Source: an uncultured Bifidobacteriaceae bacterium
GTDB taxonomy: Bacteria > Verrucomicrobiota > Verrucomicrobiia > Limisphaerales > UBA11358
Reading direction: 5' to 3'
NCBI GenBank assembly: GCA_964655855.1
Contig: CAZZPE010000002.1
Span: 89,076-153,075, forward strand
DNA: 64,000 nucleotides
Below the pieces are notes generated by a model that ran no database searches, was not told the DNA's origin, and saw only the letters and a list, made by a program, of their open reading frames with translations. Below are positions 7,449 through 63,439 of this stretch, piece by piece. The position numbers were made by a program, and so were the translations under genes. The stretch's first letter is position 1; every line of letters starts with the position of its first letter.

Positions 7449-8456
7449 TCAACTGGCGGGCGGGTTGGGGACGCGCTGCTTGAGTTGTTCGATGCGCTGG
7501 CGCGCCTGCGCGGCGAACGGCGAGTTGGGGTCGAGCTGCAACACCTGGTTGTAATAAACCAGCGCCCCAACACGCCTTTGCTCCGCGTTCAAAACCTTGT
7601 TCTGCTCGTAAAACTGCGCAATCCTGAAATTGCCCTCCACCTGCTGCATCTTGAGCGCGATGATCGCCTTCTGCGCGTCCGGCACGCGCTTGTCATCGGG
7701 GAACAGCGTGAGGAAATCCGTGTAGGCCGCGATGGCCTGCGCGGCGGTGCCCTGGTCATATTCGGCGGTGGACGCCTGCTTTTGATACGACAAGCCTTCG
7801 CGGTAAAGCGCGTCGGCGGCAATGACCGGCTGGTTGTAGTAGCGGTCGGCGGCGGTGGCATAGGCCTTCACCGCGTCGGGATAATCCTTCTGCTTCTCGC
7901 GCGCCGCACCGATGCGCAATTGCGCATGCGGCGCAACGTCGCTGAAAGGCCCGTTGGTGACAATGGTGCTGAACAGCTTGGCCGTTTCATCCATCGAGCG
8001 GTAAAGCGGGATGGTGCCCCACAGCCTGAAAAATTCACCGCCAAGAAAACGGTTGGCAATTTCATACTGACGCCACAGCACGTCTTCGTAACTTTCGCTG
8101 TGCGGATACTTGTTGATGATGGCCTCATAGGCTTTGAACGCCGCCTCGTCCTTGCCCGATGTTTCGAGGCAGCGGCCGATGAGATATTCGGCGCGCGGCG
8201 CATAATCCGAAAGCGGCCACACCCGCACGATGCGATGCGCCGCATGGAGCGTCACATTGTAATTTTTGTTGGTAAACGCCTGCTCCGCCACCTCCAGCTG
8301 CTCCTTGGCGCGCGGTCGCTGCCAGTTCGCCTTCTGGCCGTAAGGCTCATAATACCAGCCCTCGCCCGGAGTGTAATACAACGGTGCCGGCGAGCGGAAC
8401 GGCAGCAGCATCGCGCCCGCAATCAACAACAGCAAAAAAACGAACCGGCGGTTCAT
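7449..8456 (-). CDS. BamD/YfiO-like TPR outer-membrane assembly protein
   Basis: Signal-like N-terminus (MNRRFVFLLLLIAGAMLL), then repeated TPR-like helices. Start chosen at the internal ATG at 8456. Confidence 0.5.
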   Translation of the reverse strand: MNRRFVFLLLLIAGAMLLPFRSPAPLYYTPGEGWYYEPYGQKANWQRPRAKEQLEVAEQAFTNKNYNVTLHAAHRIVRVWPLSDYAPRAEYLIGRCLETSGKDEAAFKAYEAIINKYPHSESYEDVLWRQYEIANRFLGGEFFRLWGTIPLYRSMDETAKLFSTIVTNGPFSDVAPHAQLRIGAAREKQKDYPDAVKAYATAADRYYNQPVIAADALYREGLSYQKQASTAEYDQGTAAQAIAAYTDFLTLFPDDKRVPDAQKAIIALKMQQVEGNFRIAQFYEQNKVLNAEQRRVGALVYYNQVLQLDPNSPFAAQARQRIEQLKQRVPNPPAS

Positions 8457-8507: not shown

Positions 8508-9014
8508 TCAGCCCCGGTAAATGATCACCAGCCCGTAATCCGTCATCACTTTCTGGGTTTGCACGTCAAAGTGCTCGTAACTGATGGTGTGGACGCTGAT
8601 GATGTTGTGCTCGCCGACCTCCGCCAGACTTTTTGAGACGATCTCGTCAAACTTGTCATGACCGGCGTCAATGCACTTGTCATGGCGCACGGTCCGCACG
8701 CGAATCTGCTTGTCCGCGCCCTTGGCGACGGCTTCGAGCGGCACGGCCGCTTTTTTGATGAGACTTTCGCCGGACGTGGCCCGCACCGGCACCTTGAGAT
8801 GGAATTCCACCTTGGCGGCGGCGGACGACGCCATGGCGCTGGGCGCGAGGCTCGGCGCGCTGACTTCCTCGGACGCGGCTGGAGCGGGTTTCCCGTTTTT
8901 TTCGGGAATGGTGATGTTTTCACCGCAAGTGGGGCATGGGATTTCCGAACCGGCGCCTGCGGCATCCACGGACAGTTCCTGACTGCAATTGGGGCAGTTG
9001 AAGATGATTTCCAT
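8508..9014 (-). CDS. Zinc-ribbon domain protein, function unknown
   Basis: N-terminal CPNC...CPTC ribbon, Ala/Pro/Ser-rich linker, about 90-aa C-terminal domain. Confidence 0.5.
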   Translation of the reverse strand: MEIIFNCPNCSQELSVDAAGAGSEIPCPTCGENITIPEKNGKPAPAASEEVSAPSLAPSAMASSAAAKVEFHLKVPVRATSGESLIKKAAVPLEAVAKGADKQIRVRTVRHDKCIDAGHDKFDEIVSKSLAEVGEHNIISVHTISYEHFDVQTQKVMTDYGLVIIYRG

Positions 9015-9295
9015 AAGTGTGATTTGGGTTGACTATGCCCACAGATTATCACCAAAGAGTTTTGAAACCAGTAAAAAAATCGCGGAAATTGCAAATTCCC
9101 ACCGGTCAAGGAAATCACAACGCCCGCTCACTGCATTCGATTTTCCGGCCGGAACTGTGGCATCGGAGACTGGGGAGAATCGCCCTTCGCCGTCCAAACA
9201 ATCCAACCCGGCTGGAACAAATGAAAAGCCGCTTTCCTTATCGAAAGACAAGAAAAACGGCTTTCAGTTCAGATCGAAACTTTCAGGAACAACAA

Positions 9296-9748
9296 TCAAC
9301 GCCCGCCCTTTTCATCATTCTTCCTCGGGGCAGACTTTGCCGGCCCGCCATGCCCAACCGGCTGGACATGACCCCGGGCATCTTTTCGGAAACGATCATT
9401 GCGGATGGCGTGCTCCCGCCAATCAGCATGCCCCCTTTCCCATCCATGGAAACGCTCCAACCGGAAGGGTTCACAGACCAGCCACACATCACCGGGTCCC
9501 AAGTAGAAATACTGGTCGCCAACGACACCGACGAATTCGTCACCATCCCAGACATAAGTGTCAGGAACCATCACTGGTTCTTCCAGCACCACCGGCGCCG
9601 GAGCGACATATACCGGCTGCGGTGCGACATACACCACCGGCCGGAACACCACCCGTCCATCCGGCTCAACGACACAGCCCGACATCAGCACACCAATCCC
9701 GCCTGCCGCCACCGACAGGACACACATACGCAAACATTTTGATTTCAT
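9296..9748 (-). CDS. Hypothetical lipoprotein
   Basis: Signal peptide with lipobox (GVLMSGC). Confidence 0.45.
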   Translation of the reverse strand: MKSKCLRMCVLSVAAGGIGVLMSGCVVEPDGRVVFRPVVYVAPQPVYVAPAPVVLEEPVMVPDTYVWDGDEFVGVVGDQYFYLGPGDVWLVCEPFRLERFHGWERGHADWREHAIRNDRFRKDARGHVQPVGHGGPAKSAPRKNDEKGGR

Positions 9749-10331
9749 TGTTTAATTCTTTTTCAATTCTCGTTTTTGAGCCTGCCGACTCCGTGTTTGA
9801 AATTTTCACGGCACAGATGTCACGGGAACGACATTGTCTGGCAGGCCGATCCCGCTTTACCGAGGAAGAACACAGCCGGACGACCGTCATTCAGACGGCC
9901 GTTTTGAAGATACTGTTTCCGCCATACCGGAAGATCATCCTTTAATCCCAGGAATCCGTCAACTCCAATCCTGCAAACCGAACATACGAACGGTCAAATC
10001 GCCGGCATAGGATGCGCGGCAGGTGTCAGTTCGCCGCGTCGCGTGAATTTCCGGAGTTGGTGTCAGCCTCTTGATTCACGACCAAACCAAAGGGGCATGG
10101 AAGCCATTTTGAAAAACGACACCTTCCAGTTTTTCAAGGCGTCTTCAAACGGCAGGCTGCTTTTGGTTGCGTCACCGGCCTTGGCGGTTTTTGACATGGG
10201 AAAATGCCGATAAACGCCGCTCAAAAAGTCCAGCCTAAAGTCGAAACGCCCCGCATCAGCCACAAATTACGCGGATTGCACCGATTCCGAACAAAATAAG
10301 CCAATACAAAGACGTAAGGATGTGGAGGCGT

Positions 10332-12308
10332 TTATTTCGGCACCGGTGGGTTTAAGCCTCGGCCAATTTTGTCCAAAAACCCATTTGCCATTGACTGCAA
10401 GAAATCAGATGACATTTGCCTCCATGTAGGACTACCATTGTTGAAATCGGCAAAATAACTTATCAGATCAAGATTAATAGTAGTTGTATTGTCAGCATTT
10501 TGCTCTACAAATATTAAATACTGGTTAGCGTGCAGACTAAGTATCAATATCGAATGTTGAGTGGAGGTGGTCGTAATAATTCCCGTTTCAGCGTTTGAAT
10601 GAATTGATTCTTCTTTTTGTTGCGTTAGAATATTGAGCGTCGAATTCCACACTTTATTGAATGGAGCAGAGTATGTTCTTGTGTAATTAGGAAAAAGTCT
10701 CGCATTTTGAGTCGAAGCAATTAGATGTTGAAACCGCTTTTCATTCGCCTGCCGTTTTTCGGACGCTGCTTGTTGTTCAGACTGTAAGCGAGCCTTTTCC
10801 GCAGCCTGTTCAGCTTCTCCGATTGTTGCTTGCAATTTAACTGCGGCGGGATCATCAGGGTCAACAGCCAATGCTTTGGCAATGGCTGCTTTCGCGTCGA
10901 CAAGTTGTCCAGAATCAAGGGCTTCTTGTGCTTGCCCCATCGCTTGAAGATACTGTTCGCTGGTCAACTTTACTGAAAAGTTCGTTACCGCATTTTCGAC
11001 TGCGGAAATAATCAAATTCGTTGCCACATAACCATTGAGATTCAGTCCCACGCTTGAATTCCCCACTGGAACGCGATTAAGAGTCAGAGGCGTCTTGCCG
11101 ATTTCTTTTTCTTTGCGAATAACAGTCGCGCCTGCTGGCACGCTCATTAACTGAATCATGCCATAGCGAAAAACAAAAGGTTGTTTCACATTTTCCTTCG
11201 GGCTGACGCCGACATCTGCCATGAGGTCGTTGTCGCCGTCGGAAACGGTCAAATTATATGTTGCTGGCTTCAATTCTTGTAGCGTGATTGGCGTCTTTCC
11301 AATTTCTACGCCATTTTTTAAGACAACCAATCCAGTCGGTTCGCTCGTGACTTCAATTGAACCGTAGGAAAATTCCATTTTCTTCGTTGTGACACTCCCG
11401 CGAACTGCCGAGACAACCGAATCCAATTCCCAATCGCGCCTCGTGATAGACAGGGAATAATTTCCAACCGGCACATCTTCAATGTGTGCGGGTAGTTTCC
11501 CTTGCCAACGGTGTCCACCGCCAGACATCTCGTATTCCGCATCGGCGGGAACAGAGGACAATTCTACCTTGCCCAAATTCAACTCGACGGTTTCATTCGT
11601 TGTCTGCTGGCGCTGGACGTCAACGGTGCGAGTTTCCTGATAATCTCCGCGCTTGACAACCAGTGTGTAATTTCCGACCGGCAATTTTTCCACGTCCAAC
11701 GGCGCTGCGCCTTGATTTACAGTTTCACCGCCACGCTGCACAAGCACTGTGGCGGGCGACGGATTGACTATTACAACCAAATTCCCCTTGCTTGTCTCCA
11801 AAGGCAGATTCCCCAAATCTTTTATCCCGTAAAAAACCCAGAAATGCTGTTCATACGGTTCAACGTTTTGCATGGCGACGGAAATATCATGCCGGCCGGG
11901 TTTGAGATGATCACCGCTTCCGAAAAGCTGTCCGTCCACCGTTATTTCAGGCATTTGTCCTTTGGACATTTCCTTTCCATCTAGGACAAATCCGTATGTC
12001 AACGCCGTTCTCGCGGCGATTGATTTGTAAAGAACTGTCCCGCCATAAATGAGCGCACCGATGATTGCCAGCACAACCAATGCTGGTGGAATCGAAGTTT
12101 TACCTGTTCCAGCATTTATAGGTTGGGTTGGCACAGGGTCAGCGGGTGCCGCAACAACTTCGCGGCACGGTGTCCATTTTTCAGAATCAGTGGGACGCAC
12201 TGGTGTGTCGTCATTCAATACTCCGGCAAACCGCAACTGCGCCAAAGTGGTCAAATCGAGCGGACCAATTTCTTTGCCTGAATTGTCGTAATAAAAATAG
12301 TTTTGCAT
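10332..12308 (-). CDS. GYF_2 (DUF4339) - TM - multi-PEGA domain protein with coiled-coil/TPR-like tail
   Basis: N-terminus YFYYDNSGKEIGPLDLTTLAQL...W (GYF_2 pattern) and one TM (ALVVLAIIGALIYGGTVLY). At least four PEGA-like repeats (e.g. SVPAGATVIRKEKEIGKTPLTL, SEPTGLVVLKNGVEIGKTPITL). AT-rich. Confidence 0.7.
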   Translation of the reverse strand: MQNYFYYDNSGKEIGPLDLTTLAQLRFAGVLNDDTPVRPTDSEKWTPCREVVAAPADPVPTQPINAGTGKTSIPPALVVLAIIGALIYGGTVLYKSIAARTALTYGFVLDGKEMSKGQMPEITVDGQLFGSGDHLKPGRHDISVAMQNVEPYEQHFWVFYGIKDLGNLPLETSKGNLVVIVNPSPATVLVQRGGETVNQGAAPLDVEKLPVGNYTLVVKRGDYQETRTVDVQRQQTTNETVELNLGKVELSSVPADAEYEMSGGGHRWQGKLPAHIEDVPVGNYSLSITRRDWELDSVVSAVRGSVTTKKMEFSYGSIEVTSEPTGLVVLKNGVEIGKTPITLQELKPATYNLTVSDGDNDLMADVGVSPKENVKQPFVFRYGMIQLMSVPAGATVIRKEKEIGKTPLTLNRVPVGNSSVGLNLNGYVATNLIISAVENAVTNFSVKLTSEQYLQAMGQAQEALDSGQLVDAKAAIAKALAVDPDDPAAVKLQATIGEAEQAAEKARLQSEQQAASEKRQANEKRFQHLIASTQNARLFPNYTRTYSAPFNKVWNSTLNILTQQKEESIHSNAETGIITTTSTQHSILILSLHANQYLIFVEQNADNTTTINLDLISYFADFNNGSPTWRQMSSDFLQSMANGFLDKIGRGLNPPVPK

Positions 12309-12311
12309 AGT

Positions 12312-13628
12312 TCAAGGGAGGACGTGTCCAGGAATACTGCAAGTCACTTGTGGATATGAACCGACCGGGTGGAGTGTGTATGTGCCACCCGAAGGACAAG
12401 ACGGAACTTCCCCATTGGCGTTGAGTTTAATGTATGGCTTTACGTCTGTCATAGTAGGAATAGTGCCAACTGATTTTCCAGTTTCCAATGCCCATTCACT
12501 GATGGCTCCATCAATCTGCCGAAGATTGTTGATGCAGGTGTTAGCCCTTGATACAGCCTCCTCCGTTTTTACATTTGTTTCAATTTCTGACATTCGTTGT
12601 GGCGAGACTTGCATAACAGAACCATCTGTTAATACCACGACGTGATGAGTGGGGCAGATCGCCAAAACTTCACGGGGATTTGAATCGTTTACAATTAAAC
12701 CGGAATGTATCAAGTAACTTACATTTTCTGGGCGTAAATGAGCAAAATCTATTGCTGGCCTTTTTGAATCAGAAGGACACAGTAAAACTTTTGTTGCGGC
12801 CAACTCATTGGACATAACCTGAAGATGAAGAAAAGTATTTTTATCGAATCCATCCAATGTTCTATCGCAATACTCCATCGTTCCTCCCGATGCAATTCCG
12901 ACATTAAATGGATATTTATCTCCATGGTCTCCTTCCCATATTCTAAAAGCCAAACCGATCTGCTTTAGATTATTAACACAAGCATTAGCCTGTGATAAAG
13001 TTTCGTCATTTTCTGCTTGAGAAAGTAGTAAAGGATTAGAAGCACTCAATATATGCAATTCGTAAGGAGCCCCAAACCTCCATCCGCCTTCAGTTTTTAC
13101 GCCAATCATTTTGCCCGCATATCTTTCATGATCTCCAGAATGACTCGTAACGCCTCTGATTGTTACATCTCGCTCAAATTCGATTTCCGCCTCAAAATCA
13201 ATCTCATAGTTTTGAGTGGTTGATAAGTCTGAAGAATTTGTTTCCATAAACGACCGCCCGCTCGTTTCTTTAAAATTAACAAGATTGATTCCGTCATTGA
13301 GTAAATTTATCTGTTTGTAGTATGATCGTTTAGCTTCGGCTTCGTGGGGTGGCGCAGCATAATATTTTGCAAAAAATACGATCGCAACGGCAACCAATAG
13401 GCAAACCCATGTCCACCTAATGGATATATTGGAAAATTTTGGCGAGGCTTGTTGCAAAGGTGATGACGGCAGAAATTCACGCAAAGATTTCCATTCTGTA
13501 GAATTTTCAAGGCGTGCCGGAGTATTGTTATTTAACATTCCGACAGCGTGCAGTTTGGCTAGCGCAGCCAAATCAAGCGGACCAATTTCCTTGCCGGAAT
13601 TATCGCGATAAAAATAAGTAGCGCTCAT
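12312..13628 (-). CDS. GYF_2 (DUF4339) - TM - protein with two pseudopilin-like (DUF1559/GspG-like) modules
   Basis: N-terminus YFYRDNSGKEIGPLDLAALAKL...W and one TM. Modules: ANACVNNLKQIGLAFRIWEGDHGDKYPF...LLCPSD, and ANTCINNLRQIDGAISEWALETGK...SCPSGGTYTL. Confidence 0.7.
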   Translation of the reverse strand: MSATYFYRDNSGKEIGPLDLAALAKLHAVGMLNNNTPARLENSTEWKSLREFLPSSPLQQASPKFSNISIRWTWVCLLVAVAIVFFAKYYAAPPHEAEAKRSYYKQINLLNDGINLVNFKETSGRSFMETNSSDLSTTQNYEIDFEAEIEFERDVTIRGVTSHSGDHERYAGKMIGVKTEGGWRFGAPYELHILSASNPLLLSQAENDETLSQANACVNNLKQIGLAFRIWEGDHGDKYPFNVGIASGGTMEYCDRTLDGFDKNTFLHLQVMSNELAATKVLLCPSDSKRPAIDFAHLRPENVSYLIHSGLIVNDSNPREVLAICPTHHVVVLTDGSVMQVSPQRMSEIETNVKTEEAVSRANTCINNLRQIDGAISEWALETGKSVGTIPTMTDVKPYIKLNANGEVPSCPSGGTYTLHPVGSYPQVTCSIPGHVLP

Positions 13629-14461
13629 TGCATTAAGGCTCCTTTGAACAATGCACCCTTTAATTCATCTGACATTCCTTGAGCCATTTGATCTGCATAC
13701 ACAGCCATAAAGATAATTTTAGAAAGCCAGCAGGCTGCAACGATCACGACTGGCACCATAAATGTTCCCATGCGCTCATCAAGTCCCGAAATACGCGTGA
13801 GCCCGACGAACACCTGAAGCACTATTATACAGATTGAAACGAGAAAGATTATTGCCAAAACCTCAATATTGCCAAAACCAAGAATATTACACAGAAGAAG
13901 GTCAACCGCCCAAACGAGCGATATGGCTCCCGCGACAAAGACTTCGCCTCCAATATCACCTTCGCGGCGGTTAATTAAGCGCATGATAAACATCGCCGCC
14001 GCCCAAGTTAGGCAACAGGCCAAAATGGTGAAAAAAAGTTTTAGAAAACCTCCAAAATCGCCGGGGCGTATTATGCCAAAAGTTTTGGTCATATAAACCA
14101 GGAGCAGCGCTATGATTGCATAAACTGCAATAAATACAGCACCAACACCGCCCGCTTGCTTCGAACCTAGTTGCTGGTATGCAGGAAACATTCCACCAAC
14201 TGGATTGGTTAGCAAATTTACCCAGACACTTCTGGCGTGTTGCACCGCTTCGGAAACTTTGGCCATCGTAGGGGATTGCGAAGGCACATTGGACGTTTCC
14301 ACTTTTCCAACCACTGATACACAGGTGACCCACGCCCCACCGCTTTCTGGACGCACCAACGTGTGATCTTTTATTACACCGGCAAGCCGAAATGATTTTA
14401 AGTTTTCCAAGGAAACCGGTCCGATCTCCTGATTCTTTTCGTCCATGTAATGGTAGTTCAT
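13625..14461 (-). CDS. GYF_2 (DUF4339) - polytopic (Yip1-like) membrane protein
   Basis: N-terminus YMDEKNQEIGPVSLENLKSFRLAGVIKDHTLV...W, then about 5 hydrophobic helices. 4-nt overlap with the downstream gene. Confidence 0.65.
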   Translation of the reverse strand: MNYHYMDEKNQEIGPVSLENLKSFRLAGVIKDHTLVRPESGGAWVTCVSVVGKVETSNVPSQSPTMAKVSEAVQHARSVWVNLLTNPVGGMFPAYQQLGSKQAGGVGAVFIAVYAIIALLLVYMTKTFGIIRPGDFGGFLKLFFTILACCLTWAAAMFIMRLINRREGDIGGEVFVAGAISLVWAVDLLLCNILGFGNIEVLAIIFLVSICIIVLQVFVGLTRISGLDERMGTFMVPVVIVAACWLSKIIFMAVYADQMAQGMSDELKGALFKGALMQ

Positions 14462-14600: not shown

Positions 14601-15314
14601 TCACGCATTCAATGGTTGCGTTGGTGGCAGATCGAATTTCTTTCTCATGCCGGCGCTGGCGGGGTCGGTGTAGGGGAATTCACCGTCGGCGGCGTGCTGC
14701 AATTGGCGGCGGCGCAGGGTCAGGCTCACCACCATATTCGTCAGCTTCGTCCGCAAATCCTTGGCATCGCCCTTGCCGCCCACTTGCGTCACCTTGGTTG
14801 CCTTGTAGGTGTCGGACGCGGTCTTGAGATCTGTGGCGTGTTGCGCGGCAATTTTCGGCAGGGTGTCGGTCTTGAGCTTGTTCAAAATGTTGTCGGCGGC
14901 GGTTTCCAGCGCGGGACGGCTGATGTCTATGTTGGTGCCAATGCCGTATTCGGCAAGGGCGTTGCTGTTGCCGATGTATTTGACTTTGGCCTTGCTCTGG
15001 ATGTAATGGACTTTGGCCAGCAGCACCTTTTTGGCGGTGGTCTCGGCGCCGGTTTCCTGCTTGGCGTCGGTGACGGCTTCGGACGCGCCGCCGGTGTATT
15101 GGCTCATTGTCTGCAAATCAGTCCCCAGCTTGGTCATGAAATCGGCCGTGATGATCTGGTCGTCCTGGATTTTGGCAAAGGTCGCGGGATCGCCGGCCAC
15201 GCCGTAAATGGTGTTGGTGTGGCTGATTTCGGCGAGCTGGTGTTTGTCGAGGAGACCGTGGTGTTTTGGGGTTTTGGCGGCGGGTGTGGGTGCGGGTGTC
15301 GGATTATCGCTCAT
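14601..15314 (-). CDS. Hypothetical alpha-helical protein
   Basis: Start set at MSDNPTPAPTP (ATG 15314). The longer ORF to 15428 only adds translated repeat DNA. No known motif. Confidence 0.45.
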   Translation of the reverse strand: MSDNPTPAPTPAAKTPKHHGLLDKHQLAEISHTNTIYGVAGDPATFAKIQDDQIITADFMTKLGTDLQTMSQYTGGASEAVTDAKQETGAETTAKKVLLAKVHYIQSKAKVKYIGNSNALAEYGIGTNIDISRPALETAADNILNKLKTDTLPKIAAQHATDLKTASDTYKATKVTQVGGKGDAKDLRTKLTNMVVSLTLRRRQLQHAADGEFPYTDPASAGMRKKFDLPPTQPLNA

Positions 15315-15449: not shown

Positions 15450-15727
15450 AAATCGGTGGATTTCGCGGATTTTAAGGCAAATCCGCCGGTTTTCCGGGGA
15501 ACTCCGCGCATTGGAAGGCTCACTCCACTGAAACGGAACCGCACTCCACTGGTTTGGATTGGATCTCCGCTGTCCCGCTTTGTTATTCCGCTGTTTCGGA
15601 AAGGCGCTCCGCTGAAACGGATGTCTGCTCCTCCGCTGCGGATTGTCACTCCACCGGATTTGGCGGGCACTCCGCTGCCGCAGGTTGCAACTCCACCGCT
15701 CCGGGAATCCACTCCGCTGGTTTGAAA
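15450..15727. repeat. Degenerate 21-bp tandem array, about 12-13 units (array 1)
   Basis: Units such as ctcactccactgaaacggaac / cgcactccactggtttggatt / ggcgctccgctgaaacggatg / ggcactccgctgccgcaggtt. Conserved core aCTCCgCTG recurs every 21 nt. Confidence 0.75.
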
Positions 15728-15932
15728 TGCGAATGAAGCGCCGTCCGGCCAGACGCCATTGGGCAACAAAAAATCCCTCCCGGAAAGCGAATGCGTCTTG
15801 CTCTCGTGATTTGCAAACGACACCACATGCCATTTGTAACCCATATCCACTGACGTGTGCTTGCCGAGGACTATAAGCAAATTCCAAAATCAATGGCAAG
15901 AAAAAAGATTTTAAAAATAACAAACCGGTTTC

Positions 15933-39707: not shown

Positions 39708-40472
39708 ATGACAAAGCGCTCCGATCTAAAACCGAAGAAAAAAGAAAGAGTGTGCGTGTTACTGGAACGAGCTGGAATTAAGGTTGTAAGAAACCAATAT
39801 TTTCTGTCTGAATGGGCTTATGTTGAATCAGGGAGGGTTGCTGTCCTAAATTTTTGGTTCGCGCAAATGAAGCAACGAGGTCAGGACATTGTTTTTAATA
39901 AGAATTTCCTTGAAGCCTACGACGCGAGAGGGAAGAGGAATCAAGCCAGAGTAAAACAAGCGATTAGAGAAAAACTTCCAATTCGCATTATTGTTCTGGA
40001 TGGAAAGATGGGCAGTCCCAAGGGAAGCATTGTTTCCAAAAGGCAATTGGATCCAGCCATTTGGCGTGTGACTGCTGTTGACCAAAAAACTGGTGATTAC
40101 ACTTTGACGCGAGTAGCAGAAATGGAGAATGCCATTGATGACCTGTCGGCTCCTCCAGAGGGAAATCAGTTTCCAGATAGGGCAAGCGTCGTTGTCCAAG
40201 CCATAAAACGTGATAATCGAGTAAGGGCACACGCGATTAAACGTGCGAGAGGAAAATGCGAATATTGCAATGTTCAGGGTTTTGCTACAACAAACGGTCG
40301 CTTCTATGTGGAAGCCCATCACATTATTGCGCTATGCGATGCGGGACGCGACACGGTTGACAATGTGATTGCGCTTTGTCCACAGCACCACCGGCAAGCA
40401 CATTACGGTAAAGATGCGGAATCTCTGGAGTCGGAATTCATCAAGATTTTAGAGAAGTTGAACAAGAAATAA
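39708..40472 (+). CDS. HNH endonuclease with an uncharacterised about 170-aa N-terminal domain
   Basis: C-terminal CEYC...EAHHIIALCDAGRDTVDNVIALCPQHHRQAH (HNH/McrA-like). AT-rich. gggaaagga Shine-Dalgarno. Confidence 0.75.
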   Translation: MTKRSDLKPKKKERVCVLLERAGIKVVRNQYFLSEWAYVESGRVAVLNFWFAQMKQRGQDIVFNKNFLEAYDARGKRNQARVKQAIREKLPIRIIVLDGKMGSPKGSIVSKRQLDPAIWRVTAVDQKTGDYTLTRVAEMENAIDDLSAPPEGNQFPDRASVVVQAIKRDNRVRAHAIKRARGKCEYCNVQGFATTNGRFYVEAHHIIALCDAGRDTVDNVIALCPQHHRQAHYGKDAESLESEFIKILEKLNKK

Positions 40473-40676: not shown

Positions 40677-41000
40677 TTGGGGGATTCTTACATAAATCCA
40701 TGACGAAGGAACATTGATGTTCCATAGATTAACATCAATCCATGTCAGGTTAATGTTCATTCGTTGTAAAAGAATGTTCCTTTGCCACGGATTAATCTTC
40801 TTTCGCTTAAGAGGATATTCGTTCGTCACGGTTTAACATTCGGATGCGATAAATGAATGTTCTTCCATCGTAAAAGAACATTCTCCCGTGACGGATTGAT
40901 GTTCTCCTGTCATGGATTTACGTGATTTTTGGTTCGCGGATGATCCTCCAACCACGGCTTTTCCTGATTTTCTAAAACCGGGTCACGGGTTTCTCCCTTT
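40677..41000. repeat. Degenerate about 21-bp tandem array, AT-rich, about 14-16 units (array 2)
   Basis: Units such as cacggattaatcttctttcg / cacggtttaacattcggatg / catcgtaaaagaacattctcc / cgtgacggattgatgttctcc / tgtcatggatttacgtgattttt. Recurrent GGATT...TTCTCC core. Confidence 0.65.
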
Positions 41001-60858: not shown

Positions 60859-62019
60859 ATGGTCAAAAATTGGTTTCAACGGAAAGAGAACCAGCCCGCG
60901 CTTATCACTTCTACGGGGGCGATTATCGCTGCCATCATTGCGGGATTGTTTCTATGGGGAAACGGGTGCTTTTCCAAAACGCCCCCGCCCGCCCCCGCCA
61001 ACACGAATGCCATTAAGGCAGATGGACAGGCAACAGTGAACGTATCAAATCGGAACGATGACCATTCGCAACACATCAATAATTTTTACATTTCGGGAAC
61101 TGGTTATGTTGTCGTGTCTTTGGGGATTGTAGCAGTTTTGTTTTTTGTCGTTCGCTCCCGTTCTCAGTCCAAAACAGAAAAGTCCGAACCCCCAAAAGAA
61201 ACCCCCGCCCCAAGGGAGCTAGCGCCTAGTGAAATTAGAACGCAATCATTAATGGATTGCTTTTCCAAACTCGTGGGAGTCACCACGGCGTTTAAAAATT
61301 ATGTCTGCTATATGCCTGACGAAGAAGAACGGGCCAAAAATAGAGACAACTATGCAAAAAAATTTCGAGGATTTGAAAACGACCTTAAAACAAATTTGTT
61401 CGTTCCAGCGCCTATCAAAAGCCAAATCAAATCTCTTTTAGACGAAATCGAGCGTCAAGTTTCGCACTACATTACCAGCATAGAAACAACTGCACGACCA
61501 ATCAGCAACAAGAATTACCGTGAATCTTTGGAAATTTCAGACTTCGCAAAAGAAGCGTGCCCGCTCCGATTGAAAGCAATCGAGAAAGAATTTCATATCC
61601 TATTGCATCCATCGGGAAACATCCCAAGCATTGATACGGTTAATACCGTCAAAGCTCTATATCCAAAGTTGATCGCGTTAAGGGCCGCATACGACAATTA
61701 TCGGCAAATGATGGAGCCACCATCACGAGATAAGAACTTTAAGGAATTGAAGAAATGCTTTGACGACGCTTACAATTCCTTTTCTGATAACCGCCTATAC
61801 CTTAACGAGACGACCACCGAAAACGTTAATAAAGTATTGACGTTCGTGAACGCCTCTACCACGCAGTTCAGAATGGCCCTAACGGAAGCTGAATCAGATT
61901 ACAGAAACGAAAATGAAAGAGGCACGCTTTTTACCACACACTTTCAAACCGATAATAGCATTCCTACCCTTTACGCGATTATGGAAAGAGATTTTAAGCG
62001 GGTGTTAGGCATAACGTGA
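60859..62019 (+). CDS. Orphan AT-rich protein with two N-terminal TM helices and a helical C-terminal domain
   Basis: TMs ALITSTGAIIAAIIAGLFLW and GYVVVSLGIVAVLFFVV. No recognisable motif. Composition unlike the flanks. Confidence 0.5.
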   Translation: MVKNWFQRKENQPALITSTGAIIAAIIAGLFLWGNGCFSKTPPPAPANTNAIKADGQATVNVSNRNDDHSQHINNFYISGTGYVVVSLGIVAVLFFVVRSRSQSKTEKSEPPKETPAPRELAPSEIRTQSLMDCFSKLVGVTTAFKNYVCYMPDEEERAKNRDNYAKKFRGFENDLKTNLFVPAPIKSQIKSLLDEIERQVSHYITSIETTARPISNKNYRESLEISDFAKEACPLRLKAIEKEFHILLHPSGNIPSIDTVNTVKALYPKLIALRAAYDNYRQMMEPPSRDKNFKELKKCFDDAYNSFSDNRLYLNETTTENVNKVLTFVNASTTQFRMALTEAESDYRNENERGTLFTTHFQTDNSIPTLYAIMERDFKRVLGIT

Positions 62020-62412
62020 ACTAAAAAGGTGCGCGGCATAGTCGCAGTGATAATAAAAGCTGCCGGTCTTTTTGAGGACGCGCGCCAGTTGTTCGCAGCG
62101 CGGGCGCATGTAGTCAATGTAAGCCGTGGTGGATTCGTGGCGGTCGTCAAACCGCCGCTTCTCGCTCGTCTCCGGCCAGAAGATTTCGTAGTTGCGGTTG
62201 GAATTGAACGGCGGGTCAATGTAAATCAAATCCACGCAGCCGTCGGGCAGCTTCTTGAGCTGGTCCAGATTGTCGCCGCAGTAGATGACGCGGGTGTCGA
62301 GGAGGGGGCTGGGCTTCGCGATTGTTTTGCCCGCCCTCACCCCGGCCCTCTCCCCCGGGGAGAGGGTGTCCGCAGGACGGGTGAGGGGTTCTGCGTCTGC
62401 TTTCTTTGCCAT
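62005..62412 (-). pseudogene. Truncated N4/N6 DNA methyltransferase (N-terminal fragment only)
   Basis: VIYCGDNLDQLKKLPDGCVDLIYIDPPFNSNRNY (DPPF motif IV region), then ...GSFYYHCD. The ORF ends where AT-rich DNA begins. A family F repeat is translated near its N-terminus. Confidence 0.7.
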
Positions 62413-63097: not shown

Positions 63098-63360
63098 GCG
63101 CGGGGGCTATTTTCAACTCCCCCCTCGCTTTTTGCAAAGTCCCCGGCGCTTTTTGGACAGGCGGCGGGAGAGCTGGCATCGGCGTGGGGGACTTTGGCAA
63201 AGGAAACGGGGGAGCTGGCACCGGCGGGGTCGCCTTTGGCACCGGCGACGGGGGCTTTCGGAAAGGCGCGGTCGCCGACGGCAGGGGCGAGGGGAAAGTT
63301 CGCGCCGGCGCGGGGGCTTTTTCAAAAGGCCGGGTCGCCTGCGCGGACGGCACGGGGGAG
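63098..63360. repeat. Degenerate about 21-bp tandem array, G-rich, about 12 units (array 3)
   Basis: Units such as gggggactttggcaaaggaaac / gggggagctggcaccggc / gggtcgcctttggcaccggcgac / gggggctttcggaaaggcgc / gggggctttttcaaaaggcc. Confidence 0.65.
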
Positions 63361-63370
63361 AATTTGGACT

Positions 63371-63439
63371 GCGGCGACACGTCGCCGCTTTCCCCGACGC
63401 GACATGTCGCGTCGAACCAAAGCGCGGACTTGTCCGCGC
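63371..63439. repeat. Three 18-nt palindromes, two perfect and one with central mismatches (family A hairpins)
   Basis: Perfect: gcggcgacacgtcgccgc (63371-63388) and gacgcgacatgtcgcgtc (63396-63413). gcgcggacttgtccgcgc (63422-63439) has 7-bp arms around a non-complementary cttg centre. tttgg/ccaaa closes the first two. Confidence 0.85.

Follow-up and report, generated by a model that had tools for sequence, protein, structure and literature searches.

To our knowledge, GltJ carries the only bacterial GYF domain that has been studied experimentally. According to the text of a 2024 survey (Attia et al., Sci Adv; PMC11135422), G, Y, and F are missing from this domain, a deviation reported for nearly all bacterial GYF domains, and it binds a proline-rich sequence of AglZ through a beta-sheet face where the best-conserved residues of prokaryotic GYF domains are located. 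The surveyed bacterial proteins, which are enriched in Planctomycetes-Verrucomicrobia, combine an N-terminal GYF domain with a membrane-associated receptor module; a zinc ribbon is found in about 44% of the class, the genes often lie in operons with receptor-like transmembrane (TM) proteins, and the authors propose a role for the GYF proteins in outside-inside signaling (PMC11135422). Other N-terminal GYF membrane proteins are likewise proposed to pass signals, and no second system is named in the same text (PMC11135422). Here we describe three consecutive genes, referred to as A, B, and C, whose products each begin with a GYF domain of this bacterial type. They lie in a 64,000-nucleotide stretch of peat-bog Verrucomicrobium DNA (the window; contig CAZZPE010000002.1 of assembly GCA_964655855.1, positions 89,076 to 153,075 of the forward strand).

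The three genes are arranged back-to-back on the minus strand (Table 1), with a 4-nucleotide (nt) overlap (ATGA) at the A/B junction and a 3-nt gap at the B/C junction, and they constitute an exchangeable, translationally coupled cassette of Verrucomicrobiota. Based on their domain content, their topology pattern, and their conserved order and coupling, we tentatively propose, with a probability of roughly 45%, that A, B, and C work jointly as a receptor or scaffold set resembling GltJ, in which the GYF domains would dock a proline-rich cytoplasmic partner. The products appear to follow a common design composed of a GYF domain that we predict to be cytoplasmic, a short, disordered linker rich in Pro, Ser, and Thr, one or more TM segments (by hydropathy, five in A, one in B, and one in C), and a membrane or periplasmic module that differs from protein to protein. 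The modules are regarded as extracytoplasmic because they are homologous to modules of exported proteins and because B has conserved cysteines, and the GYF domains are hence regarded as probably cytoplasmic. An earlier note on this DNA, made from the sequence alone, had described three tightly packed minus-strand genes with a common N-terminal GYF_2 domain, and the open reading frames (ORFs), their junctions, and the domain searches described below all agree with that description.

The exchangeable nature of the trio follows from a precise difference between close relatives, from its recurrence in at least eight genomic contexts, and from a deficit in guanine plus cytosine (GC). The syntenic locus L022 (SMC, GCE, xseA, array, 239-aa gene, and further on zinc-ribbon gene, BamD, and LptE), which is about 92% identical to the window in nucleotide sequence in the flanks, is without the trio: in blastn and MAFFT alignments, homology ends right after the TGA of an upstream gene for a protein of 237 amino acids (aa) and resumes at window position 10004, with 411 unrelated nt in place of the intervening segment. 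Elsewhere, the trio is found after rplQ (L010), lysS (L015), a CsgG/FlgO-like gene (L008), and at other sites. The borders of the cassette carry no flanking direct or inverted repeats beyond 9-nt chance matches, and no mobility gene was found within the block. The block has a GC content of 0.454, compared with 0.592 ± 0.040 in 1-kb windows outside it, and GC at third codon positions (GC3) is 0.34–0.45 in A, B, and C versus 0.70–0.78 in the genes encoding BamD, XseA, the zinc-ribbon protein, and the 237-aa protein, which places the deficit in codon usage and not in amino acid content. In seven of the eight other contexts, the trio is 5–14 GC points poorer than its flanks. The suggestion in the earlier note that the block is AT-richer than its surroundings and may have been acquired is thus borne out by composition, by the exact presence and absence between the window and L022, and by the variety of contexts.

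Loci for comparison were collected through homologs of B (L007, L008/9, L010–12, L019, and L020) and through a profile of A (n = 15), which gave four loci in GTDB genomes (L013–L016) and 11 metagenome loci (L024–L034). In all 34 fetched loci, each GYF copy lies in one co-directional run of two to five genes and none occurs elsewhere in the flanks, so that the linkage surmised earlier holds and the genes are nowhere scattered. The A-B-C order, with the 4-nt overlap and gaps of 2–4 nt, is present in the window, L007, L008, L010, L013, L014, L015, L019, and L024–L029, and the same order is found in at least eight genomic contexts, all attributable to Verrucomicrobiota; the named records among the relatives are Limisphaerales and Verrucomicrobiota metagenome-assembled genomes (MAGs). 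Orthologs of A from more than 15 loci are 48–87% identical.

The composition of the runs varies around this pattern. There are three B-type genes in L008 and two each in L019 and L026. A second type of trio (L016 and L030–L034) consists of a GYF-TM2 protein of about 190–212 aa, a protein of about 270 aa with a GYF domain and four or five TM segments, and a C-type GYF-PEGA protein, with no pseudopilin gene among these loci. L020 also starts with a GYF-TM2 protein, has its A protein fused to a second GYF domain (470 aa), and retains just an 82-aa fragment of the last B head; its B gene looks frameshifted or decaying. Two of the loci, L013 (CAYPTV010000116.1) and L016 (PLNY01000289.1), have trios 79–95% identical to Verrucomicrobial ones and sit in MAGs titled "uncultured Bifidobacteriaceae" and "Anaerolineae," labels that are probably binning errors and not signs of cross-phylum transfer.

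Such variation could be expected if A, B, and C were independent paralogous receptors that arose by tandem duplication of a GYF-TM anchor and by module swapping, each signaling alone via the same kind of partner. In keeping with this, A and B are replaceable by other GYF-membrane proteins, B-type genes number from one to three, and the periplasmic modules are freely shuffled among many other anchors. We nevertheless consider independent receptors rather unlikely, given that order and coupling (the ATGA overlap and the 2–4-nt gaps) are kept across orthologs that are just 48–80% identical, that no run long enough to reveal C is without it, and that A, being without a periplasmic sensor module, is hard to envisage as a stand-alone receptor. 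It is this conserved order and translational coupling from which we argue for the joint action of A, B, and C.

At the level of individual domains, A and C exceed the gathering score of the GYF_2 family (PF14237, 25.8 bits) and B falls marginally under it (Table 1). The first 50 residues of an AlphaFold model of B (pLDDT 91.6) match the GYF structures of Smy2, GIGYF1/2, Tic56, and GltJ (7z3c) with Foldseek probabilities of 0.99–1.0. Pairwise BLAST comparison of the N-termini gives E-values of 2e-11 for A and C, 7.5e-15 for B and C, and 7.5e-5 for A and B. A profile of such domains identifies only these three copies in a six-frame translation of the window; this profile also picks up Tic56 through its GYF_2 domain (8z9y_E, E 8.7e-6) and gives a weak match to GIGYF1/2. 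Ten residues are invariant in 19 domain copies (Y3, Y5, D7, E12, G14, P15, L21, T34, R37, and W44), and these (YxYxD, EIGP, TxVR, and W) lie on or beside the four strands of the model (residues 5–8, 14–18, 37–40, and 47–48). The Pfam GYF model (PF02213) matched B only, with an E-value of 0.063, and the domains are not assigned to the canonical eukaryotic GYF family. The canonical signature, W-x-Y-x(6-11)-GPF-x4-M-x2-W-x3-GYF, reportedly forms the pocket for a proline-rich peptide, as Kofler and Freund are said to have set out in 2006. The domains of A, B, and C keep Y-x-Y-x-D...EIGP[LVF], and the second W is replaced by R or other residues.

Similarity between B and C at their 5' ends extends to the DNA sequence (83% of the first 48 codon-aligned nt are identical, as are 87.5% of the 48 nt from the YFY motif), a level close to the seven or so mismatches in 49 nt that the earlier note had counted and taken to suggest recent module duplication or gene conversion. 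Among the identical amino acids of this stretch, 11 of 15 have identical codons, as would be anticipated after such an event inside this genome. However, B of the window is just as similar to C of L010 (85.4%), and C of the window to B of L010 (83.3%). The domains group by gene position and not by genome, with mean identities between genomes of 0.74 for A–A, 0.71 for C–C, and 0.56 for B–B, and B–C identity is the same within a genome (0.57) as between genomes (0.55), the value in the window (0.51) being under the cross-genome mean. A recent duplication or conversion is therefore barely credible, and we attribute the likeness to the near-invariant peptide YFYRD.SGKEIGP combined with the AT-rich codon usage common to the clade.

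The modules that follow the GYF domains differ among the three proteins. The core of A had been likened to Yip1 (PF04893) in the earlier note, and family membership is not supported: A scores 8.5 bits (E 2.3) against a gathering score of 28.6, and relatives of the A core reach E-values of 0.004–0.047 and at best 17.5 bits, also under the threshold. The similarity consists of five TM helices with similar spacing and a weak alignment over positions 4–165 of the 173-position profile. Judged from sequence comparisons, the core is a family of its own that is Yip1-like in layout only; this family comprises 461 representative clusters, in which the N-terminus is GYF, a zinc ribbon, or both.

In B, the TM helix is followed by an NTF2-like module, a feature absent from the earlier note, which in Foldseek searches resembles the intermembrane-space domain of PARC6/ARC6, the association domain of CaMKII, and SnoaL-like cyclases (probability 0.75–0.98). 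The remainder consists of two pseudopilin-like heads. Residues 216–323 are 51–52% identical to three proteins with N_methyl and DUF1559 domains (P0094, P0114, and P0115), and the head matches DUF1559-type family members with E-values of 1e-20 to 1e-42. The pseudopilin assignment made earlier stands with respect to this homology and fails with respect to a direct Pfam match, as B scores 18.9 bits (E 1.6e-3) against PF07596 (DUF1559; SBP_bac_10), below the gathering score of 23.3, and NCBIfam returned nothing. The motif H-H-V-V-V-L-T-D-G is of the type H-X6-DG, shortened from H-X9-DG. The second head, characterized by the motifs C..NNLRQID..W and CP.GG.Y, is kept in all B orthologs (77% identity to L010) and has no sequence match in the PDB. 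T2SSG (PF08334) has no match in B of the window, whereas a B paralog of 647 aa in L019 carries a precomputed Pfam T2SSG assignment in place of this head. B is modular, its middle head being absent from B of L010. The top 50 matches in a whole-chain Foldseek search with B contain confident matches to GYF or NTF2-like structures only and no pilin, so that the pilin-like assignment rests on sequence homology and secondary structure.

B shares with the DUF1559 / H-X9-DG prepilins (PF07596 plus PF07963) the globular head, found at residues 216–323 and including the helix motif C.NNLKQIGLA...W. Unlike these prepilins, it has no class III signal, N-methylation motif, or hydrophobic alpha1-N helix; Pfam finds no N_methyl domain (PF07963) in B, whereas the homologous heads of P0094, P0114, and P0115 do carry one, and an ordinary TM helix follows the GYF domain. 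Because the leader is absent, B is not a prepilin, and we predict that its heads are fixed on the membrane and cannot be polymerized. Leaderless heads of the B type are widely shuffled in Verrucomicrobia relatives (P0092, P0097, P0102, P0120, P0020, P0067, P0011, and P0023), where they follow sigma-70 r2/r4, a zinc ribbon with DUF4190, DUF4234, Sel1 repeats, or DUF3352, and they also occur on proteins named "outer membrane lipoprotein-sorting protein" by JGI. This shuffling suggests that the leaderless heads derive from pseudopilins and serve generally as a binding or sensor module in the periplasm.

In C, the presence of PEGA domains claimed in the earlier note is confirmed (PF08308, E 8.8e-28 and 96.5 bits for the whole protein, above the gathering score of 20.8). 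Three fragments (residues ~172–245, 315–385, and 381–453) score 33–47 bits, with E-values of 4.9e-8, 4.3e-9, and 2.9e-12, and PEGA was not detected in units 1 and 3 by the fragment search. The remainder of C is not simply the coiled-coil tail that had been described; a C fragment gives a weak TPR_16 match (E 1e-4), and the last 118–135 aa have neither a family match nor a PDB match. In other proteins, this PEGA array is joined to Ser/Thr kinase, DnaJ, ankyrin, or ARM modules. C thus resembles the PEGA ectodomains of bacterial Ser/Thr kinases and similar proteins (PF08308) in that an array 26–57% identical to theirs follows a single TM helix, and it differs in that the cytoplasmic module is a 50-aa GYF domain and not a kinase, DnaJ, ankyrin, or ARM module. 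The fusion of the outer modules of B and C to kinases, DnaJ, sigma factors, and zinc ribbons in other proteins is the basis on which we regard them as sensor-like.

We envisage that A would serve as the 5-TM membrane core of the set, that B would display the NTF2-like domain and two membrane-fixed pseudopilin heads, and that C would display the PEGA beta-sandwich array, the TPR-like stretch, and the further domain. The periplasmic modules may bind envelope or external ligands, and the three GYF domains may dock one proline-rich cytoplasmic partner via their conserved beta-sheet face, which would couple the periplasm to a cytoplasmic process. Formation of a complex, a proline-rich ligand, and a role in signaling or as a scaffold would all be expected under this proposal.

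Several observations weigh against the proposal of a joint, GltJ-like set. The canonical ligand-binding signature is partial in these domains, in which GP[LVF] is retained and G-Y-F has become G-[VM]-[LI]. The profile of these domains does not detect the GltJ GYF domain by sequence, and the model of B superimposes on the GltJ GYF structure with a root-mean-square deviation of 7.7 Å. Family searches with A, B, and C identified no zinc ribbon (E < 0.1), TonB-C domain, or MglA/AglZ-type partner, and no outer-membrane component is conserved with the trio. The variant trios (L016, L020, and L030–L034), in which other GYF-membrane proteins take the places of A and B, imply that a fixed three-subunit machine is not required. 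Finally, the trio shows no specific linkage to any proline-rich partner, the upstream 237-aa family occurring as often without GYF genes as with them.

A ligand might also be found within the trio itself. All three juxtamembrane linkers are disordered and contain Pro (VPSQSP in A, LPSSPLQQASP in B, and AAPADPVPTQP in C), and each GYF domain could in principle bind the Pro/Ser/Thr-rich linker of its neighbor, in which case the proteins would form a daisy-chained array in the membrane without an external partner. Conservation of the linker sequences does not extend across orthologs, however, and we view self-assembly of this kind as highly improbable.

The conserved, disordered, Pro-rich tail of the 237-aa protein makes this protein the obvious candidate ligand for the GYF domains. 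The start of its gene was placed according to the 238-aa protein of L010, to which the product is 76% identical from residue 39 of the longer ORF. The N-terminus (MSDNPTPAPTPAAKTP) conforms to the pattern MSD(N)PTPAPTPAAKTP, in which P9 and P11 are present in at least 90% of 57 sequences, and even a family member in L019 that is 30% identical begins MSDPTPTPTPTPAP. The model of the protein (pLDDT 71.7, with residues 1–18 under 50) is all-helical and has no PDB match by Foldseek (best E 0.13), the protein has no Pfam match, and its family is narrow, at 72 clusters. If this were the common partner, with its tail as ligand of all three GYF domains, the functional unit would consist of four genes and the array described below. 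The family does precede the trio in four different contexts (the window, L010–L012, L019, and L025). However, family members in L017, L018, L021, L022, and L023 have no GYF gene within 7–8 kb and stand before unrelated cargo, as does the member in the P0155 context, which has no GYF_2 annotation; conversely, trios occur without the family in L008, L015, and L020, and L014 has a non-homologous gene at that position. As the family precedes other cargo equally often, association does not mark the protein as a dedicated partner of the trio, and the normal GC content of its gene beside the low GC content of A, B, and C points to different histories. We therefore think it decidedly unlikely that the 237-aa protein is the common partner.

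The slot after the stop codon of the 237-aa gene is occupied by diverse cargo. It contains an FGE-sulfatase, an S8 protease, and a 319-aa protein in L017, Phd/YoeB in L018, a PEGA protein, DUF1425, and two LpoB proteins in L021, and an 1132-aa protein, a 188-aa protein, and CsgG in the P0155 context; in L022, there are no cargo genes and the slot is the 411-nt remnant. The cargo is mostly GC-poorer than the 237-aa gene, and toxin-antitoxin genes, a resolvase, or transposases are often near.

Upstream of the 237-aa gene lies a non-coding array whose 21-nt period is strict. In seven of eight loci, members of the 237-aa family have such an array beside them. Arrays of this kind are found at 8042–8268 in L010, ~7509–7825 in L017, and ~8200–8520 in L014, and also in L021, L022, L023, and L019, with units such as CAACGGAG[TC]G....TCC in L017 and CTTCGGATCAA in L014. 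Between the window and L022, the array is 86% identical with the GGA core unchanged, and the spacer from the array to the ATG is 58% identical. Gene callers render the array as spurious proteins of 150–199 aa with 7-aa repeats, and a coding reading is ruled out by the absence of codon-position bias, since substitutions relative to L022 are distributed 10/12/15 over the three codon positions in the array and 22/15/52 in the 237-aa gene. TRF missed the array, Rfam returned nothing, its predicted RNA folding is no better than that of shuffled sequences (z -1.2 and -1.1), and a regex scan of the window found no csrA-like ORF. A period of 21 nt corresponds to two helical turns. The array may possibly represent phased DNA binding sites, or else a GGA-rich leader or sponge RNA.

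These features could be combined in a view in which the trio is one of several interchangeable AT-rich envelope cargo cassettes inserted after the stop codon of the 237-aa gene, behind a conserved chassis of promoter, array, and 237-aa gene, with the array regulating the unit and the Pro-rich tail serving as the GYF ligand. Taken as a whole, this combination strikes us as very unlikely; if it were true, the chassis and cargo slot would be a previously undescribed cassette-exchange locus of Verrucomicrobiota.

Table 1. Coordinates of the trio, its predicted domains, and associated features in the window.
Feature	Position	Strand	Details
AT-rich cassette segment	10005-14599	-	A-B-C with 139 nt upstream and 327 nt downstream; absent from L022
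Gene A	13625-14461	-	278 aa; GYF_2, linker of ~40-60 aa, 5-TM core
GYF_2 domain of A	14327-14455	-	aa 3-45; PF14237 E 3.4e-6, 27.2 bits
5-TM core of A	13700-14212	-	aa 84-254; TM 106-124, 142-160, 176-194, 201-219, 236-254; by hydropathy
Gene B	12312-13628	-	438 aa; GYF_2, 1 TM, NTF2-like, two pseudopilin-like heads
GYF_2 domain of B	13476-13616	-	aa 5-51; PF14237 E 1.7e-5, 25.0 bits
Single TM helix of B	13353-13427	-	aa ~68-92; by hydropathy; helix 72-89 in the model
NTF2-like (cone-shaped alpha+beta) periplasmic module of B	13041-13343	-	aa 96-196; by Foldseek
Pseudopilin-like head 1 of B	12603-13034	-	aa 199-342; DUF1559 / H-X9-DG type without prepilin leader
Pseudopilin-like head 2 of B	12315-12602	-	aa 343-438; long helix and small sheet in the model
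Gene C	10332-12308	-	658 aa; GYF_2, 1 TM, PEGA array, TPR-like stretch, C-terminal domain
GYF_2 domain of C	12156-12299	-	aa 4-51; PF14237 E 1.5e-6, 28.3 bits
Single TM helix of C	12027-12083	-	aa 76-94; by hydropathy
Five beta-sandwich units of ~72 aa in C	10944-12011	-	aa ~100-455; units 2, 4, and 5 detected as PEGA
C-terminal part of C	10335-10943	-	TPR-like/charged helical aa 456-540; ~118-aa domain aa 541-658
237-aa gene	14601-15314	-	start at 15314, not 15428; all-helical; GC 0.587, GC3 0.765
Candidate GYF-ligand peptide (apart from the linker peptides)			MSDNPTPAPTPAAKTPKHHG
Non-coding array	15466-15736	-	~12 units, strict 21-nt period; invariant GGA, core CAG[CT]GGAG[TC]; upstream of the 237-aa gene
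Sigma-70-like promoter match	15870-15899	-	TTGCCA-18-TATAGT; consensus match alone, 10/12; upstream of the array, kept in L022

Further searches and neighboring features complete the description of the locus. A, B, C, and the 237-aa protein have no matches to the PADLOC anti-phage defense models or the PHROGs phage families, IMG/VR viral contigs contain no relatives of A or the 237-aa protein, and PDB sequence searches with A, B, C, the 237-aa protein, and the C-terminal head of B yielded no useful match. Within the block, 16 promoter-like matches were found where 7.4 are expected, a count that AT-rich DNA inflates. Intergenic arrays with a 21-nt period and other cores are also present at ~40720–40930 (GGATTAACATTC-like) and ~63100–63380 (CTTTGGCA / CTTTTTGCAAAG-like), each adjoining one of the two other AT-rich islands of the window; the island at 39.0–41.0 kb contains an HNH-like gene (39708–40472), and the island at 60.5–62.0 kb contains a 386-aa gene (60859–62019) beside a truncated DNA methyltransferase fragment (62005–62412). 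On the other side of the trio, a gene for a 150-aa lipoprotein-like protein (9296–9748), whose PXPV repeats correspond to a 21-nt tandem repeat in the DNA at 9590–9635, is followed by a strong terminator-like hairpin of 19 pairs on the minus strand (9224–9265). A 168-aa gene (8508–9014, minus strand) directly upstream of bamD-lptE and outside the cassette encodes the only nearby zinc-ribbon protein, which has a DUF7560-like zinc ribbon at the N-terminus, a linker rich in Pro and Ala, and a C-terminal part of the alpha/beta type. The literature often reports zinc ribbons and GYF domains as partners; no link was found between this gene and the trio, and since the gene is kept in L022, which is without the trio, it belongs to the core genome.

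The trio offers a compact, recurrent, and well-delimited candidate, with three GYF anchors, three outer modules, tight coupling, and presence or absence between close relatives, and is thereby suited to asking whether bacterial GYF domains generally dock proline-rich partners. It also presents a case of periplasmic modules, namely pseudopilin heads and PEGA arrays, that are held in place by a membrane anchor. This is relevant to the expansion of DUF1559-type proteins among PVC bacteria, for which there is no explanation as yet. Even if its function proves ordinary, the trio clearly exemplifies the horizontal exchange of an envelope cassette in peat Verrucomicrobiota.

Among solved structures, the best sequence match to these domains is Tic56 of the chloroplast TIC complex (8z9y_E), which likewise places a GYF_2 domain in a subunit of a membrane complex; as a eukaryotic organelle protein of other architecture, it offers no functional parallel beyond the domain. 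The class of bacterial GYF proteins surveyed in 2024 is closer, sharing with the trio an N-terminal GYF domain followed by a membrane module and operons with receptor-like TM proteins, and differing in the zinc ribbon, which A, B, and C are without (PMC11135422). The statement in the earlier note that no function had been described for the arrangement must be amended in this light, because the class is known and the domain of GltJ binds a proline-rich partner; it stands for the operon type itself, including both of its variants, its leaderless heads mounted on a GYF anchor, and its cassette behavior, of which, as far as checked and including the text of the survey (PMC11135422), we have found no description. 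Closest in the proposed mode of action is GltJ of the Myxococcus xanthus Agl-Glt gliding machinery (7z3c), an inner-membrane protein with a cytoplasmic N-terminal GYF domain of the bacterial type that is part of a multi-protein envelope system (PMC11135422). GltJ has features of its own, in that its GYF domain is preceded by a zinc ribbon and a switch linker of 95 residues and its periplasmic part is TonB-like (PMC11135422), and the trio differs from it in having three GYF proteins in a row and other output modules. We thus do not regard A, B, and C as members of the GltJ family, and suggest instead that they may work in the manner of a GltJ-type GYF docking module.

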